From NCBI GenBank assembly GCA_045648665.1, contig JAZROL010000019.1:1-59208 (forward strand): 59,208 nucleotides of DNA. Direction: 5' to 3'. A program made the position numbers and the translations under genes. The notes below the pieces were generated by a model. That model was not told where the DNA came from and did no database searches. It was given only the letters and a program-made list of their open reading frames with translations. Origin of the DNA: Candidatus Enterousia sp. (GTDB taxonomy: Bacteria > Pseudomonadota > Alphaproteobacteria > Rs-D84). Below are positions 6,576 through 59,157 of the stretch, in pieces (position 1 is the first letter of the stretch; each line of letters begins with the position of its first letter).

Positions 6576-7067
6576 TTACTCCACTGGTGTTGTTATCAAT
6601 CTCCACCCGCTGAATATATATCCTGGTCTGGTTGGGGCTGGTGGCAATGTTATCTTTTCTCCATATGTGCACGTTGTTTGCGCAACTATTGTATCCCTGT
6701 CATACCAATTCAGGTTTATTGTGTTTGGTCGAAATACCGGTTTAAATCGTCTTGGTATAAAATTTGCTGAACATACATTTGATAAATTATTTGTGATTAT
6801 TTGTTGTTTGGTTATCCCCTGGACATTTGTAGGGTCAAAATCGAAAGTTCCACCAGGACAAGTATATCCGTTTGGACACTGAACACAATGGTCAGTGTTC
6901 GCAGGCAGAAAATATCCTGAATTACAAGTAAATGTTTTTATACGAAACACAGGAAACAGTCTAGTTATATTGCTATTACAGCCACCAACAACATCCTGGG
7001 TGATATAATCAGCATGTACATCGTACATAAAAAGTAAATATAAAAATAATAATAATATTTTTTTCAT
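6576..7067 (-). CDS. Secreted Cys-rich protein with C-terminal InlB B-repeat-like domain
   Basis: Signal peptide, TCNSGYFLPANTDHCVQCPNGYTCPGGTF, INLNWYDRDT...CTYGEKITLPPAPTRPGYIFSGW. Paralog of 918-1619. Confidence 0.78.
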   Translation of the reverse strand: MKKILLLFLYLLFMYDVHADYITQDVVGGCNSNITRLFPVFRIKTFTCNSGYFLPANTDHCVQCPNGYTCPGGTFDFDPTNVQGITKQQIITNNLSNVCSANFIPRRFKPVFRPNTINLNWYDRDTIVAQTTCTYGEKITLPPAPTRPGYIFSGWRLITTPVE

Positions 7068-7076
7068 AACTGTTTA

Positions 7077-7844
7077 TTATGGTATCGCTGGGCCGGCAAT
7101 AAAATCACCAGTACCTGCATTATAAAAGTATTGATTGGAAACTTTATCATACATACATGGTGTGCCATTATTATCAAGCACAGGTATAAAATCACGAACA
7201 AGAGTGTTAGTTGAATTCCAAATTTTTACATAATAATTTCGTTGCGCAAAACACTTGTTGCTATAATCACTATAACCTATTTTTACAGACACATTTTGTG
7301 TTGGTAATATATTTGTATTGTTCCTGTCCATGTATATTTCATTATTTATTTTCACTACAAATTTTGTATTTGATGTATTAAGGTAAAGATCAAAAGGTGT
7401 ATCGTCTGTAATTAGTATATTTGCAACATTAGTAATGCTCCCTTTCTCTGCATATAAACGCGAATCAGTAGAATAAAACTCGTTCCTTGAGTTATTAGGA
7501 TTTGCCTTTGAAATACTACCTAATTGAAGAATATATTTACCATCTTTCATTTTTGGTGCCATACGAGCTTCTATTATACAACCACCATTTGCATAAAAAC
7601 CTGTATCAATATATTGTGTCCCTGTGAATTCTAAATATTCAATTGGAGTATAATCTACGGCCCAACCAATAAAATCATATCCCAATTTCGTTGGTGTGGG
7701 GGGTAAAATTAAATCGCCCCCTATTGTACAGGTTGTTGTTTGATTTGTTGTGCCGTCTTCATTTAACCAAGTCAAAGTTATATCTTCCGCTATGGCGGTT
7801 GTGCCGATAAACACAGCAAATAAAAACAATATTATTCGTTTCAT
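7077..7844 (-). CDS. Secreted protein with N-terminal InlB B-repeat-like domain and C-terminal beta-sandwich (LamG/ConA-like) domain
   Basis: ATG at 7844 after GGAGG. Signal peptide, TTTCTIGGDLILPPTPTKLGYDFIGW, then YTPIEYLEFTGTQYIDTG...LVRDFIPV...MYDKVS.QYFYNAGTGDF. Confidence 0.75.
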   Translation of the reverse strand: MKRIILFLFAVFIGTTAIAEDITLTWLNEDGTTNQTTTCTIGGDLILPPTPTKLGYDFIGWAVDYTPIEYLEFTGTQYIDTGFYANGGCIIEARMAPKMKDGKYILQLGSISKANPNNSRNEFYSTDSRLYAEKGSITNVANILITDDTPFDLYLNTSNTKFVVKINNEIYMDRNNTNILPTQNVSVKIGYSDYSNKCFAQRNYYVKIWNSTNTLVRDFIPVLDNNGTPCMYDKVSNQYFYNAGTGDFIAGPAIP

Positions 7845-7860: not shown

Positions 7861-8060
7861 AAAAACAATAAAACCGCGCTTAAAAGGCGGCTGGAGGTTA
7901 GCTACAATTCAAAGAGAAATTGTGTGCATATTCAATGTATTTTGCAACCCTCCAACCCAAAAAATAGTTGGAGTTACCATTTCGTCCCTTACAGAACGCT
8001 CTTTGATTAGGGTAGCTATACCCCGCCAGAAAAAATCTTTCTGGCAAAATTATTTTATCA
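7861..8060 (-). ncRNA. Structured leader RNA, C4/CI-antisense-like attenuator (copy 1)
   Basis: Extended -10 TGATAAAAT (8052-8060), 5' hairpin (8025-8045), target boxes (8013-8018, 7999-8006) complementary to a three-way junction (7889-7957), terminator-like stem plus U tract (7861-7892). Same layout as 58265-58490. Confidence 0.7.
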
Positions 8061-8159
8061 AACATTAAATATGAATAAAAGCGAAAAATAACGCTATTTT
8101 ATATTTGCACGAAAATCTTTTTATGCTATGATTTCGCAAAGGAAAATATAGGATTAAAT

Positions 8160-29100: not shown

Positions 29101-29131
29101 AAAAAAACACCGGCAAATGCCGGTGTTTTTT
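29101..29131. terminator. Bidirectional terminator, repeat-family copy 2
   Basis: AAAAAAACACCGGC-AAAT-GCCGGTGTTTTTT. Confidence 0.85.
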
Positions 29132-30710
29132 ATTCTTTTCTGTCTGGGTATTTACCATCAATCAAATTCTTGCGAACAAGATGATGTTTCACCTTTTGTG
29201 TACTGGTCATTGGCAAATCTTCCGTGGTCATCGCAAAATGTGTCACCCATTTATAAGATGCAACCTTTTTGTTTTGTTCGGCAATTTCTTTCGCCAACTT
29301 ATCTATAGTCATATCTTTTTCAACACTGAACACACCATAGGCGACTGTTTTATCACCAACCTTGTGTTCAAACACGGCGACATTTTTTACACCAGGGATT
29401 TCTATGAATAATCCTTCCAATTCGTCAGGATAAACATTTTTACCACTATCCAAAACAATCACTTGTTTTTTACGTCCGGCAAAATGTAATTCACCATTTT
29501 TATCCATATACATCATATCGCCAGTGTTAAACCAACCATCTTGGTCAAAAACTTCGGCATTAACTTCATCATTATTCAAATAACCATTAAAGACCTGGTG
29601 TCCACGCAACCATAACACACCGACACCGTTTTCATCTTTATCACGAATTTCGCATTCGTTATTTGAAGTTGGCGCACCGACAGAGTATGCAAATCTTTTA
29701 TTTGTCGGTTTAGAGATACAAATAGGTCCAACAGTTTCAGTTAAACCGTATCCCTGGATAAACGCCAACCCCAAAGATTCATAGAAATTTTCAACCTCTG
29801 GTTTTGTCGCGGCACCACCAGCAATTAACAATTTAGCGCGGCCACCAAACACCGCCAACAAAGGTTCTTGCACTTTACGAACAAAGAAATCCAACCCCAT
29901 ATCTTTCAAAGTTTTTTGATTTCTTAAAATAAAAGAAGCAACACGCCATTTATTTTGCTCTTTCATTGTTGTAACAATTTTATTACGGAACAATTCCCAA
30001 ACGCGTGGAACGGCGGGTATAACATGTGGTTGGAATTTTTTGAAATCGTCCAAAATGTATTTTGGATTAACTGTTGGTTGCAAAACCAATGAGGCACCAT
30101 AATGGACAGTTGCCAAAATACCAATTGCAAAACCAAATATATGGTAAAGAGGCAAAAACCCATACATTACATCACCAGAATGGAAATATTCAGACATATC
30201 TTCCAAAGAATTTGCGCATTCTGTCAAATTAAAATGTGTTAAGGGAACGACCTTTGGCGTTCCTGTTGAGCCAGATGTAAACGACAAAGTCGCAACATCT
30301 GTTGATTCAGACGGATAAGGTCTTAAATCATAATCTATATCACCATCTTTTTTGGTTATATCATAAAATTTAAATTTATCTGTTTTATAAAAGAACGAAG
30401 GTTCTGCACAAACAAATTTACAATTCACGATTTCACACATCTTATCATATTCCAATGGTGTCAAATTTGTATCCAACATCAAAGCAGTTGCACCCAAATA
30501 CCATATAGCAAACAAAGTCAACGGAAATTGTGGCAAATTGTGTGATAAAACACCAACAACATCACCATGTTTAATACCTTCTTTGTTCAATGTTGCCGCA
30601 CGCGCACGCACTTGTTCTATGAATTGTGAATACGTCACATTTTCACGAACCAAAAACAGATTTTCTGGCCATTGGTTTACAGCGTTTTCTAATTTTTGAT
30701 ACATATTCAT
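29130..30710 (-). CDS. AMP-binding long-chain acyl-CoA ligase-like protein (paralog 3)
   Basis: FTSGSTGTPK, QGYGLTE, GWFNTGD, GRKK, TSTQKVK. Confidence 0.9.
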   Translation of the reverse strand: MNMYQKLENAVNQWPENLFLVRENVTYSQFIEQVRARAATLNKEGIKHGDVVGVLSHNLPQFPLTLFAIWYLGATALMLDTNLTPLEYDKMCEIVNCKFVCAEPSFFYKTDKFKFYDITKKDGDIDYDLRPYPSESTDVATLSFTSGSTGTPKVVPLTHFNLTECANSLEDMSEYFHSGDVMYGFLPLYHIFGFAIGILATVHYGASLVLQPTVNPKYILDDFKKFQPHVIPAVPRVWELFRNKIVTTMKEQNKWRVASFILRNQKTLKDMGLDFFVRKVQEPLLAVFGGRAKLLIAGGAATKPEVENFYESLGLAFIQGYGLTETVGPICISKPTNKRFAYSVGAPTSNNECEIRDKDENGVGVLWLRGHQVFNGYLNNDEVNAEVFDQDGWFNTGDMMYMDKNGELHFAGRKKQVIVLDSGKNVYPDELEGLFIEIPGVKNVAVFEHKVGDKTVAYGVFSVEKDMTIDKLAKEIAEQNKKVASYKWVTHFAMTTEDLPMTSTQKVKHHLVRKNLIDGKYPDRKE

Positions 30711-30743
30711 TTTATACCTACCTTCATATCTTTCATTTTTATT

Positions 30744-32324
30744 TTATTCATGTCTATTGGAATATTTTCCATCAATCAACCATTGACGAACAACATGGTG
30801 TTTAATTTTTTGTGTGCTGGTTACAGGTAAATCATCAGTTGTCATCGCGAAATGCGTCACCCATTTATACGAAGCAACTTTTTTATTAGCGTTCGCAACA
30901 GCTGCTGCCAATTTTTCCATTGTCATACCTTCTTCTACACTAAATACACCATATGCAACAGTTTTGCCGTTTAATTCATGTTCAAACACAGCGACACTTT
31001 TTACACCAGGTATTTCAATGAATATGCCTTCTAATTCATCAGGATAAACATTTTTCCCAGAATCCAAAACAATCACTTGTTTTTTGCGTCCGGCAAAATG
31101 CAATTCACCATTTTTATCCATTGATACTAAATCTCCAGTACAGAACCAACCGTCTTTATCAAAAGATTCTTTGTTGGCTTCTTCATTACTCAAATAGCCA
31201 CTAAAGATTTGTTTACCTTTGACCCATAACATACCGATACCAGATTCGTCTTTGTTACGAATTTGTATTTCAGTATCACCCATTGGTGCCCCAAAAGCAT
31301 ACGCAACGCGCTTTTTCAAAGGTTTTGAACAACAGATTGGTCCAACAGTTTCAGTCATTCCATAACCTTGAACAAAAGCCATACCAAGTTGAGAATAAAA
31401 CTTTTCAACTTCCGGTTTAGTAGCAGCACCGCCGGCAACCAACAATCTTGCACGACCACCGAATACAGAACGAATTTGGTTTAATACTTTATTAACCAAT
31501 TTACCCATTCCAAGTGCACGCAATAATTTTTGATTATTCATAATAAATGATACCAACCACCATTTCTTTTTAGCTTTGACACCTTCAATAATTTTTTTAC
31601 GGAATATTTCCCATAACTTTGGCACAGCAGGTATAACCTGTGGTCTGTATTGTGCAAAATCAGCCATAATCGCATTTGGATTAATAGTAGATTGCAACAA
31701 AATCCCCATACCAAAATGAAGCGGAGCCAAAAATCCAACAGCAAAACCAAATACATGGTAAAGAGGTAAAAATCCATAATACATTTCTCCTGGTTTTAAC
31801 CACTGTTTCAAATATTCCAAATTATCGGAACAAGAAACCAAGTTAAAATGTGTTAATGGAACAACTTTTGGTGTTCCGGTTGAACCGGATGTGAAAGACA
31901 TTGTCGCAACATCTTCATCTTTCAAAGGATACGGTTTCAAAGTTTTATCTGTTTCTTCATCTTTTGTTTCAATATCAAAAAATTTAAAATTTTTTGTTTC
32001 ATAGAAAAATGACTTTTCAGCACACACAAATTTTGCACCTGTGATTTTAGTCATATTATCATATTCAACAGATGTTAAATTTGTATCCAGTAATAAAACC
32101 GTAGCACCAAGATACCATATAGCAAACAAAGTTAATGGAAATTGTGGCAAATTATGCGACAAAACCCCAATAACATCACCATGTTTCACACCAAGTTTAT
32201 GCAGTGTTGTTGCGCGTGCTTTTACCAATTCCAAAAAATCTTTAAAAGTGATATTTTCACGAACCAAAAACACTGTTTCTGGATTTCTTTTTACATTTTT
32301 TTCAAGCAATTCATACATATTCAT
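30744..32324 (-). CDS. AMP-binding long-chain acyl-CoA ligase-like protein (paralog 2)
   Basis: FTSGSTGTPK, QGYGMTE, GWFCTGD, GRKK, TSTQKIK. Confidence 0.9.
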   Translation of the reverse strand: MNMYELLEKNVKRNPETVFLVRENITFKDFLELVKARATTLHKLGVKHGDVIGVLSHNLPQFPLTLFAIWYLGATVLLLDTNLTSVEYDNMTKITGAKFVCAEKSFFYETKNFKFFDIETKDEETDKTLKPYPLKDEDVATMSFTSGSTGTPKVVPLTHFNLVSCSDNLEYLKQWLKPGEMYYGFLPLYHVFGFAVGFLAPLHFGMGILLQSTINPNAIMADFAQYRPQVIPAVPKLWEIFRKKIIEGVKAKKKWWLVSFIMNNQKLLRALGMGKLVNKVLNQIRSVFGGRARLLVAGGAATKPEVEKFYSQLGMAFVQGYGMTETVGPICCSKPLKKRVAYAFGAPMGDTEIQIRNKDESGIGMLWVKGKQIFSGYLSNEEANKESFDKDGWFCTGDLVSMDKNGELHFAGRKKQVIVLDSGKNVYPDELEGIFIEIPGVKSVAVFEHELNGKTVAYGVFSVEEGMTMEKLAAAVANANKKVASYKWVTHFAMTTDDLPVTSTQKIKHHVVRQWLIDGKYSNRHE

Positions 32325-32335
32325 AATATTATCCT

Positions 32336-33916
32336 TTATTCATGTTTATTTTGATATTTTCCATCTATTAAATTTTGACGAACAAGATGATGTTTAACCT
32401 TTTGGGTACTTGTCATAGGCAAATCATCATTTGTCATTGCGAAATGTGTCACCCATTTATAAGAGGCCACTTTTTTATTTTGTTCAGCTATTCCTTTTGC
32501 CAATTTATCCATCGTCATATCTTTATCTACGGAAAACACAGCATAAGATACAGTTTTATTTTTTACACGATGTTCAAATACTGCAACATTTTTAACACCT
32601 TCGATTTCCATAAACAAAGCTTCCAATTCATCTGGATAAACATTTTTTCCAGAATCTAAAACAATCACTTGTTTTTTTCGCCCGGCAAAATGATATTGTT
32701 TATTTTTATCCAAATAAACTAAATCGCCAGTATTAAACCAACCATCTTTATCAAACAATTCTTTGTTCGCAGATTTATTATTCAAATAGCCTTTGAATAT
32801 GTTAGGGCCACGAACCCAAAGTGTCCCAACACCACTTTCATCCGCATCACGAATTGTGCATTCTGAACAACCAATAGGCGTTCCAAAAGCAAATGGCACA
32901 CGATGTTTCGACGGGCGCGAACAACAAAATGGCCCAACAGTTTCGGTCATTCCATAACCCTGAACAAAAGTTATACCAAGTGATTCATAAAAACTTTCAA
33001 CCTCTGGTTTAGTGGCAGCGCCACCGGCAATCATCAAACGAACACGACCACCGAAAATATCCTGCAAAGGTTTTTGCACCTTTCTTACCAACCATCCAAA
33101 GCCGATATTTTTCAAGAACTTTTGATACTTCAAAACAAAAGACACAAACCACCACATATGTTTTTCTTTGATGCCTTCTATAATTTTATTACGAAAAACC
33201 TCGTACAAACGTGGCACCGCAGGAATACAATGTGGTTTATATGTTTTAAAATCATCAAGAATATTTTTTGGATTAACAGTTGCTTGCAACAATATACCCA
33301 TATGAAAATACATAGGTGCTAAAATTCCAGCCGCAAAACCAAATATGTGATACAAAGGCAAGAACCCATACATAATTTCATTTTTATGTATCCATTGCCC
33401 CATATCCGCATAATAATCAGACGAACTTTTCAAATTACCATGAGTCAAAGGCACAACCTTTGGCGTTCCGGTTGACCCAGATGTGAAAGACAAAGTTGCA
33501 ATATCATCCGCCATTAATTTAGCCGGTTTTATTTTTGAATTCGCTTTACCATCTGGGGTTTGAATATCAAAGAATTTGAAACCCCTTGCATCATAGAAAA
33601 ATGATTTTTCTGCACACACAAATTTGCATTTAACCGTTTTAGTCATATTATCATATTCAAACGGGGTCAAATTAGTATCCAGCAATAACACTGTTCCACC
33701 CAAATACCAAATTGCAAACAATGTTAAAGGAAATTCCGGAATATTATGTGCTAACAAACCAATAACATCACCAGCTTTCACACCCGCATTATGTAAAGTT
33801 GCTGCACGCGCTTTGATTAAAGATAAAGCCTGTTTAAAAGTGATTTTTTCGCGTACCAAAAACAAGGCGTCAGGTGATTCTTTCGCCACCTGCTCTAAAA
33901 CCTGATACATATTCAT
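32336..33916 (-). CDS. AMP-binding long-chain acyl-CoA ligase-like protein (paralog 1)
   Basis: FTSGSTGTPK, QGYGMTE, GWFNTGD, GRKK, TSTQKVK. Confidence 0.9.
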   Translation of the reverse strand: MNMYQVLEQVAKESPDALFLVREKITFKQALSLIKARAATLHNAGVKAGDVIGLLAHNIPEFPLTLFAIWYLGGTVLLLDTNLTPFEYDNMTKTVKCKFVCAEKSFFYDARGFKFFDIQTPDGKANSKIKPAKLMADDIATLSFTSGSTGTPKVVPLTHGNLKSSSDYYADMGQWIHKNEIMYGFLPLYHIFGFAAGILAPMYFHMGILLQATVNPKNILDDFKTYKPHCIPAVPRLYEVFRNKIIEGIKEKHMWWFVSFVLKYQKFLKNIGFGWLVRKVQKPLQDIFGGRVRLMIAGGAATKPEVESFYESLGITFVQGYGMTETVGPFCCSRPSKHRVPFAFGTPIGCSECTIRDADESGVGTLWVRGPNIFKGYLNNKSANKELFDKDGWFNTGDLVYLDKNKQYHFAGRKKQVIVLDSGKNVYPDELEALFMEIEGVKNVAVFEHRVKNKTVSYAVFSVDKDMTMDKLAKGIAEQNKKVASYKWVTHFAMTNDDLPMTSTQKVKHHLVRQNLIDGKYQNKHE

Positions 33917-40296: not shown

Positions 40297-40371
40297 GCGA
40301 GCATAGTTCAAAGGCTAGAATGCAAGCCTTCCAAGCTTGAAATGAGGGTTCGATTCCCTCTGCTCGCACCA
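40297..40371 (+). tRNA. tRNA-Gly(TCC)
   Basis: Acceptor GCGAGCA/TGCTCGC, anticodon arm CAAGC-CTTCCAA-GCTTG, T arm GAGGG-TTCGATT-CCCTC, encoded CCA. Confidence 0.97.
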
Positions 40372-40510: not shown

Positions 40511-40597
40511 GGGCGTGCGCCGGAGTTGGAGAGCCGGGGCAGACTGTAAATCTGTTGTCTTAAGACTGAGGTGGTTCGAATCCACCCACTCCCACCA
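40511..40597 (+). tRNA. tRNA-Tyr(GTA)
   Basis: Anticodon arm GCAGA-CTGTAAA-TCTGT, long variable arm, GGTGG-TTCGAAT-CCACC, ACCA end. Confidence 0.95.
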
Positions 40598-58264: not shown

Positions 58265-58490
58265 TGATAAAATGATTTATGAAATCCAAAGGGATTTGGA
58301 CTTCGGGGCTTTGCTAGCCCAGTTTATCCGATGCGAAAGCATTGTTATCTGATGTTATCAGTGTCTTTCTGCACCGCTATCATCCCTGACCTATCAGGTT
58401 GGGGGGCCGTTTGCCGTAAGGGACGGAATCATTGATAAACTGATTAGCAACTCCCCGACCGCCAATTTCTTGACGGTTTTTGTTTTATCT
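58265..58490 (+). ncRNA. Structured leader RNA, C4/CI-antisense-like attenuator (copy 2)
   Basis: TGATAAAAT (58265-58273), 5' hairpin (58281-58304), target boxes TTGCTA (58311-58316) and CAGTTTATC (58320-58328) complementary to a three-way junction (58397-58460), terminator-like stem plus U tract (58458-58487). Confidence 0.72.
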
Positions 58491-58530: not shown

Positions 58531-59157
58531 ATGCTGAAAAAAATATTTTTTATTTTTGTATGTTTATTTACAAACACAGTTTTTGCATCGTGTCCAACTG
58601 GTTATACCACACCAACACATAACATAGATTTGGATTATAATATATCAACCACATTGCCTGAATTAATCGAACCAACACAACAAACACCAAATAATGATAT
58701 ATTTGTCTTGTCAGAAATGGACGGAACGTGTACAAGTGGCTATGAACCATATGTTATAAACGACAATATATCACTCTTTGCAATCGAAACCCCAACATTA
58801 TGTCCCGAAGGGCAATACCTTAACACAAATGGCACATGTACAAACTACGCAACGTGTTCCGGCAACTATAAAAAATACAATTATGCGAATAATACCGTCA
58901 TAGAACAAAACGAAAACGATGAATGTGACAGTGGTTATGAACTATACACAGATTTAACACGTTGTGATGCTTCAACAGATTATCAATGCGTTGATTTACC
59001 GACCATAATAAACCTGAATTGGTATGACCGGGATACGATAATAGCAACGAACACATGCAGATACGGACAACCAATAACATTACCACCGGAACCAACACGT
59101 CCTGGGTATATATTTTCCGGTTGGCGATTACGTACAGAACAAAACAGCGGAGAATAA
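58531..59157 (+). CDS. Secreted Cys-rich protein with C-terminal InlB B-repeat-like domain
   Basis: Signal peptide, repeated C.(T/S)GY motifs, INLNWYDRDT...CRYGQPITLPPEPTRPGYIFSGW. Confidence 0.78.
   Translation: MLKKIFFIFVCLFTNTVFASCPTGYTTPTHNIDLDYNISTTLPELIEPTQQTPNNDIFVLSEMDGTCTSGYEPYVINDNISLFAIETPTLCPEGQYLNTNGTCTNYATCSGNYKKYNYANNTVIEQNENDECDSGYELYTDLTRCDASTDYQCVDLPTIINLNWYDRDTIIATNTCRYGQPITLPPEPTRPGYIFSGWRLRTEQNSGE

Follow-up and report, generated by a model that had tools for sequence, protein, structure and literature searches.

The c4 RNA of phages P1 and P7 is co-transcribed with its targets, and changes in its boxes give heteroimmunity. Citron and Schuster reportedly described c4 in 1990 as an antisense RNA whose a'/b' boxes are complementary to upstream a1/b1, its target being a2/b2 at the ribosome site of icd. 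The CI RNA of P4 is leader-derived, and its pairing within its own operon decides the termination or translation state. For IsrK of Gifsy-1, a published study describes a short terminated isoform that targets the read-through isoform in trans (PMC4825925). Excerpts of the sRNA-Xcc1 literature place that RNA in Xanthomonas integron cassettes and 5' of symE (bioRxiv 10.1101/2025.06.18.660453), and, in APSE phages, 5' of an ORF6N protein gene.

The stretch of DNA analysed here, referred to as the window, comprises 59,208 nt from Candidatus Enterousia sp. Gut alphaproteobacteria of this kind are reduced-genome members of the order Rs-D84, according to one report (PMC12306168), and UvrB neighbours place the genome in a Candidatus Enterousia-like lineage of such bacteria. 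The window contains two leaders, one close to its 3' end and one, copy 1, on the opposite strand, and they belong to a family that is most likely an amplified and rewired form of a c4/sRNA-Xcc1-type RNA module, working as a transcription attenuator.

A preliminary description, made from the window's letters, had seen the leader's elements recur in these two places, and their recurrence proved to go far beyond two copies. When the 1.0-Mb genome (34 contigs) was searched with blastn and iterative nhmmer, 41 leader copies were found on 19 contigs, 40 full and one a fragment, and a covariance model of the shared 3' module (R1) also gave 41 copies; leaders occupy roughly 0.8% of the genome. Two subtypes were distinguished, 24 copies being type A, like the leader at 58265-58490, and 16 plus the fragment being type B, like copy 1 (fold z -4.1 against shuffles). 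The 5' halves of the subtypes are unrelated, and all type-B copies were matched by the type-A profile in their 3' halves, so the 3' module is common to both. The covariance-model search that the preliminary description had proposed found homologs not only in this genome but in 35/36 other genomes of the genus, with 2 to at least 55 matches per genome (61 candidates were scored in each, which may have capped the high counts), in 18/24 genomes from other families of the order, and in 9/149 genomes sampled across other alphaproteobacterial families. The distant matches retain the same leader parts. No published description of the leader family was found in the open-access text covered by our literature search, and none of the papers listed on Enterousia concerned RNA.

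The elements listed for the window leader in the preliminary description were all present on direct reading, each where it had been placed (Table 1).

Table 1. Features of the two window leaders and of the genes 3' of them.
Feature	Position	Strand	Evidence
Window leader, type A, copy 2	58265-58490	+	Read directly from sequence
TGATAAAAT, likely extended -10 promoter box	58265..58273	+	Sequence and aligned position in other copies
P0, 5' hairpin	58282..58297	+	Helix 90% paired in 24 copies; 3/8 pairs compensatory
GGGG and hairpin Hb (GGGCU/AGCCC)	58305..58320 (hairpin 58306-58320)	+	Hb 87% paired; 2/5 pairs compensatory
Box b (UUGCUA), in Hb loop	58311-58316	+	b:b' 5/5 pairs compensatory
Box a (CAGUUUAUC)	58320..58328	+	a:a' pairing, type-A copies
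P2 hairpin, GAAA loop	58329..58344	+	96.5% paired; 25 G.U against 2 A.C cells
P3 region, optional arm with U-rich loop	58345..58382	+	Alignment of type-A copies
X1 (UCCCUGACC), anti-antiterminator strand	58383..58391	+	X1:X2 covariation, 40 copies
X2 (GGUUGGGGGG), pairs with X1 or X3	58397..58406	+	Covariation with both partners
P5 arm, reduced in the window copy, contains GUAAGGGACG	58407..58426	+	Closing pairs 170-173/214-217 covary
Ha' arm (AAUCA/UGAUU)	58427..58445	+	86% paired; 4/5 pairs compensatory; aligns to RF02221 arm 2
a' (GAUAAACUG), within and beside the Ha' loop	58434-58442	+	Sequence
Box b' (UAGCAA)	58445..58450	+	Single-stranded in the junction fold
X3 (CUCCCCGACC), overlaps terminator 5' arm	58451..58460	+	X2:X3 covariation, 40 copies
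Terminator-like hairpin GACCGCCAA/UUGACGGU(U) and UUUUGUUUU	58457..58486	+	Terminator helix 83% paired
Gene 3' of window leader, 208 aa, signal peptide, lipobox-like Cys, Flg_new domain	58531..59157	+	
Copy 1, type-B leader, same parts	7868..8062	-	Fold, nhmmer, covariance model R1
Gene 3' of copy 1, signal peptide, Flg_new domain	7077..7844	-	

At the position aligned with TGATAAAAT, the 24 type-A copies carry TATAAT-like hexamers and the type-B copies TGATAAAAT-like sequences. The terminator-like hairpin spans 58457-58477, with one C.A mismatch in its stem, and is followed by a U run at 58478-58486; neither the TGATAAAAT promoter nor this hairpin with its U run was called by a simple promoter/terminator scanner. 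CCCUGACC at 58384-58391 faces GGUUGGGGGG at 58397-58406. By eye, P3 is missing from 5/24 type-A copies. The P5 arm reads UAUACAA...AAAG in other copies, where it aligns to arm 1 of RF02221, the Rfam family of sRNA-Xcc1. The 10-mer GUAAGGGACG, pointed out earlier as shared by the two window copies, is indeed present in both, but it occurs nowhere else in the genome, and since these two occurrences lie in non-homologous hairpins it does not characterise the family. The window leader folds with a minimum free energy (MFE) of -80.4 kcal/mol, compared with -57.9 +/- 4.3 for shuffled sequences (z -5.2; 0/200 shuffles as good).

RNAalifold returned the closed fold for the 24 type-A copies, with 20/38 pairs compensatory. 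Across the named structure 91% of cells were paired in the type-A copies and 21/44 pairs had changed on both sides; 0/500 shuffles reached as high a value, and slid controls were 35-55% paired. The GGGG:CCCC helix was 94% paired by count in the type-A alignment. Within the local helices G.U cells far outnumbered A.C cells (X1:X2 42 against 2, P2 25 against 2, P0 22 against 5), which shows the sense strand to be constrained as RNA and speaks against a DNA-level repeat. Covariation was likewise seen in hairpins Hb and Ha', whose loops display b and a', so the long-range helix and the local hairpins are alternatives.

Over the 40 full copies, X1:X2 was 97.2% paired (5/8 pairs compensatory) and X2:X3 was 92.5% paired (5/10 pairs compensatory), with 0/500 shuffles as high in either case. 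The three strands change together between the subtypes, from CCCUGAC/GGUCGGGG/CCCCGACC in type A to CUCCAAC/GGUUGGAG/CUCCAACC in type B (X1/X2/X3); much of this covariation reflects the single split between type A and type B, and its events are therefore not independent. Both pairings of X2 covary, which upholds the earlier claim of two mutually exclusive folds. The closed fold has X3 paired with the 5' GGGG and the junction fold has it paired with X2, and a pairing that sequesters the terminator 5' arm (X2:X3) is present alongside one that frees it (X1:X2). As X3 overlaps the terminator 5' arm, the leader has the arrangement of a terminator, an antiterminator (X2:X3) and an anti-antiterminator (X1:X2).

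In the proposed mechanism, the 5' module (GGGG, b in its hairpin loop, and a) would pair in the OFF state with the 3' module (a' in its loop, b', and CCCC), X1 would pair with X2, and the terminator hairpin would form. The long-range helix of GGGG:CCCC, b:b' and a:a' would act as a second lock. In the ON state X2:X3 would close a three-way junction like that of sRNA-Xcc1, taking up the terminator 5' arm, and occupation of the 5' b/a module would lead to read-through. The parts and their covariation, the RNA signature of the sense strand, the OFF default and the flip to ON with the 5' module unpaired are computed results.

The MFE structure was the closed, terminator-compatible fold in 40/40 copies, and when nascent transcripts were cut just 5' of the terminator 3' arm X2:X3 appeared in the MFE of 1/40; termination is thus the predicted default. 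When the 5' module was forbidden to pair, X2:X3 was the MFE in 33/40 nascent transcripts (19/24 type A, 14/16 type B), so that occupancy of the b/a module is the predicted input. At full length with the 5' module blocked, X1:X2 and the terminator made up the MFE in 26/40 copies and X2:X3 in only 13/40, from which it follows that the ON state would be kinetic. Under a terminator criterion scripted for this analysis (a hairpin at -6 kcal/mol or below, then no fewer than 5 U within 9 nt), 28/40 copies scored, and in several of the misses, the window copy included, the cause was a second hairpin that the script had merged with the first. From these folds we infer that transcription would actually terminate at the leader and that b/a-module occupancy would be the physiological input.

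Rfam searches of the whole window at gathering thresholds gave only two tRNAs (tRNA genes lie at 40297-40368 and 40511-40594, both +, the second with a long variable arm), and E-value scans of both window leaders gave nothing credible. The preliminary description had suggested a phage-immunity ancestry, and a concrete lead came from one distant copy and then from 9/20 type-A copies, which match RF02221 over its full length (1-87) at 25-41 bits. All of these matches lie below the gathering score of 53, the best among the 20 type-A loci being 41.4 bits. A whole-genome scan with RF02221 gave 12 matches, all on leaders and on both types, of which the best scored 39.1 and 0/12 exceeded the cut-off. 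The window copy gave no RF02221 match at E<=10, and RF01695 (C4 antisense RNA) was not among the matches listed in scans at E<=10, E<=0.5 or E<=1.

The leaders possess the three-way junction of RF02221, with its closing stem, two arms and AUACAA in arm 1, the motif being reduced in the window copy. The RF02221 closing stem GGCCGGGGG/CCCCCGGCC corresponds to X2:X3 of the leader, arm 1 (AUACAA...GAA) to P5, and arm 2, with a' in its loop, to Ha', and the 3' junction strand carries b'. Both sRNA-Xcc1 loci and Enterousia leaders have an upstream GGGG-loop(b1)-CCCC hairpin followed by a1. At canonical sRNA-Xcc1 loci a duplex test was noisy (cognate best in 8/20 upstream and 3/20 downstream) and was replaced by exact-block counting, which found the Hb(b1)-a1 ... 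a'/b' layout in 19/20 loci and b2/a2 around the ribosome site of the next gene in 12/20. This layout resembles that of the P1/P7 c4 immunity RNA, and the canonical loci of sRNA-Xcc1, a widespread but poorly understood RNA, show the full c4-like circuit of b1/a1, RNA and b2/a2. By eye, many canonical loci (L198-L217) also have a hairpin and U run between a1 and the sRNA, with CACCCGUCAG in the loop, resembling X1/X3, and premature termination may be part of the canonical circuit too.

The leaders differ from sRNA-Xcc1 in that b2/a2 are lacking, X3 being fused to a predicted intrinsic terminator instead, and in that X1 has been added as a dedicated hairpin partner for X2. A search for b2/a2 at the downstream ribosome site did not find them (cognate best in 2/39, with a mean of -10.9 kcal/mol for cognate and non-cognate pairs alike). 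The same difference separates the leaders from c4, where the target is a2/b2 at a ribosome site and not a fused terminator output. True sRNA-Xcc1 occurred in 24/151 genomes of a phylum sample at 1-6 copies each, compared with 2 to at least 55 for the Enterousia leaders. Four of the 10 proteins examined 3' of canonical sRNA-Xcc1 are of Bro-N/P22_AR_C/Rha types; sRNA-Xcc1 lies 5' of such antirepressor-type genes or symE, whereas the Enterousia leaders precede genes for envelope proteins. Among the open-access papers listed for sRNA-Xcc1, none concerned multi-copy leaders or alphaproteobacteria. The leaders are probably cis-acting RNAs at the 5' side of the genes they control, with transcription attenuation as their mechanism and a phage antisense-RNA module of the c4/sRNA-Xcc1 type as their ancestor. 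If this attenuator reading is true, the module would have been rewired from a translation block to a fused terminator, and with about 40 copies the leaders would be among the densest cis-regulatory RNA families known.

The boxes a, a', b and b' had been described as matching only their own partners, and the family agrees with that description: in 39/40 copies the best partner of the 5' module is its cognate 3' module, with a mean of -22.8 kcal/mol compared with -9.9 for non-cognate modules, and every b:b' pair is compensatory. In 24/24 type-A copies a:a' forms 7-10 bp, with 200 Watson-Crick and 9 G.U cells among 209, and b:b' has 1 G.U among 120 cells. All 24 type-A a boxes are distinct, and a single b box can be common to up to 4 copies. 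In relatives a cruder cognate test over a 110-nt target, from which 2/28 rows were left out for having no X3 motif and 2 more for short upstream flanks, gave the cognate as best in 12/26 (mean -20.5 against -15.5); type-B rows performed poorly in it, and pairing in L122, L124 and L195 was seen by eye only.

This almost wholly Watson-Crick pairing, the distinct a boxes and the cognate specificity favor a tentative and somewhat doubtful reading of the leaders as locus-addressed RNA switches acting in trans. Here exposed a'/b' would bind b/a on nascent transcripts, and only on those from their own locus, blocking the closed fold and propagating the ON state, with closed, terminated leaders inert, to give some 40 independent bistable loci. 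The display of boxes in loops, as in antisense RNAs, points the same way, as do the sRNA-Xcc1 lead, in which 12 of the 20 canonical loci offer a'/b' a further target at the ribosome site, the formation of the antiterminator in 33/40 nascent folds with a blocked 5' module, and, as a precedent, the short isoform of IsrK (PMC4825925). Against it, faster-than-neutral divergence of the a boxes was not found (identity 0.35-0.36, compared with 0.29-0.43 in unconstrained spacers), so that the 'orthogonality' of the boxes needs no selection; some copies have a b box in common; and pairing in cis should win over pairing in trans except where the trans-acting RNA is plentiful. The boxes would look just the same in a purely intramolecular helix that had drifted while constrained to pair. 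By analogy with c4, P4 CI and IsrK, the favored candidate input, at an appreciable though minority chance, would be cognate junction RNA made by the locus itself in an earlier round of transcription; otherwise it is expected to be an RNA-binding protein.

The earlier interpretation as a whole, of a domesticated phage-immunity RNA circuit addressed locus by locus, is partly supported. Its fullest form, an RNA-only epigenetic switch in which a domesticated phage-immunity RNA at about 40 surface-protein loci of a reduced-genome gut symbiont makes the ON and OFF states self-sustaining and the surface coat variegated with neither DNA rearrangement nor a protein regulator, seems unlikely. If the trans reading were true in addition to the attenuator reading, the leaders would provide a new route to phase variation and dozens of natural orthogonal RNA switches useful to synthetic biology.

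Control of the attenuator by a protein is a rather improbable alternative, in which an RNA-binding protein or chaperone on the 5' hairpins or the P5 loop would pick the fold and the boxes would be an intramolecular clamp. The sequences of P2, the Hb stem and the P5 loop UAUACAA...AAAG are conserved beyond what pairing needs, the P5 loop even in distant alphaproteobacteria, and with a single regulator the 40 or so leaders would form a simple regulon; yet no candidate was found in a search for NusG paralogues, that family being represented by one gene only. An ANTAR search gave no match in this genome, nor did it give one in any control genome, so its negative is uninformative.

Like the leaders, P4 CI and IsrK involve a leader-derived RNA whose pairing with its own operon sets termination or translation. 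They are single prophage loci for lysis or immunity genes and have no sequence match to the leaders, and, unlike the Enterousia family, neither is a multi-copy family with distinct addresses. Overlapping terminator, antiterminator and anti-antiterminator strands are also found in classical four-segment attenuators and riboswitch platforms; the Enterousia leaders differ from classical attenuators in being without a leader peptide or known ligand and in having the second, long-range lock of b:b', a:a' and GGGG:CCCC. We regard a metabolite or ion riboswitch, made up of a P1-closed aptamer with an OFF expression platform, as very unlikely. The long-range P1, the multi-stem junction and a terminator overlapping the 3' strand do resemble OFF riboswitches, and the high copy number 5' of envelope genes recalls second-messenger riboswitches. 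However, the 5' halves are unrelated between subtypes, the P3 and P5 arms are optional or reduced, the nearest relatives are antisense RNAs and not aptamers, and Rfam scans of the window and of both leaders gave no riboswitch match.

The order promoter, leader, putative terminator, RBS and gene was found in 37/40 copies. Within 300 nt 3' of the leader, an ORF of 40 aa or longer begins in 37/40 full copies, the remaining 3/40 reaching contig ends, and the window gene starts 45 nt past the leader U run. By a crude rule, 29/37 downstream proteins have signal-peptide-like N termini; Flg_new was matched in 20/37, and 3 match other families, one each. The earlier assignment of the leaders to surface-protein loci therefore holds for most downstream genes and not for every one, the non-secreted products in this genome being small proteins of 100-132 aa. 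In relatives L135, L143, L130, L136 and L148 the leader was seen by eye 5' of DNA methyltransferase- or helix-turn-helix-like N termini, and further accessory genes may belong to the regulon there. If the attenuator reading is true, a phage immunity RNA module would have been adopted by a cellular lineage to govern its cell envelope. The leaders also offer an entry to how uncultured, reduced-genome Enterousia (Rs-D84) regulate a large, variable surface repertoire with very few protein regulators.

Flg_new paralogues have the signal peptide and first domain in common, and their C-terminal halves are only 17-55% identical, which leaves no recent duplicates among them; their sequences suggest mosaic evolution. 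The leader lies within 1.5 kb of aspS in only 2/29 relatives, and the cassettes are hence not syntenic. Surface-protein multigene families with conserved 5' regions are also known from Mycoplasma, where vsp, vlp and mpl switch by DNA inversion or repeat slippage. Mycoplasma and Enterousia alike combine a reduced genome with many variable surface genes behind a conserved upstream cassette, and independent on/off control is possible in both, but unlike in the Mycoplasma families there is no sign of DNA rearrangement at the Enterousia leaders.

A DNA-level element would make a/a' and b/b' inverted repeats for site-specific inversion, or the leader a functionless co-duplicated UTR, and the inverted repeats do flank a segment of about 110-150 bp beside genes of a variable surface family in non-syntenic cassettes. 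The inner segment nevertheless has the same orientation in 41/41 copies, the strand-specific excess of G.U over A.C indicates RNA constraint, many local hairpins covary, the leader also lies 5' of unrelated genes, and it is conserved across the order and beyond. On these grounds the DNA-inversion and passive-UTR readings, which we consider highly improbable, were rejected.

Several further observations were made on the leaders and the genes around them. Flg_new is matched 72 times in the genome, among others in giant proteins whose open frames measure 3745 and 3234 aa. Small Flg_new genes are often paired, with a leader 5' of the first only (e.g. 6576-7067 and 7077-7844, -). Elsewhere in the window three tandem 526-aa ORFs lie at 29130-33916 (-), and the one examined encodes an AMP-binding enzyme. 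Between terminator and ribosome site, 14/40 leaders have an extra GC-rich module, 10 of the type GUCGCGGCCGCGG...CAGCCGGGACGGAUUGUU and 4 of the type CCCCUCUGGCUAGAGGGG, as at L029 (C6:30474-30833) and L004 (C6:59602-59986) and in neither window copy; it may be a second regulatory RNA. At L040 (C11:9811-10264) a partial leader consisting of the 3' half only (C11:10194-10106) lies directly 5' of a full type-B leader (C11:10085-9911) and is a tandem remnant.
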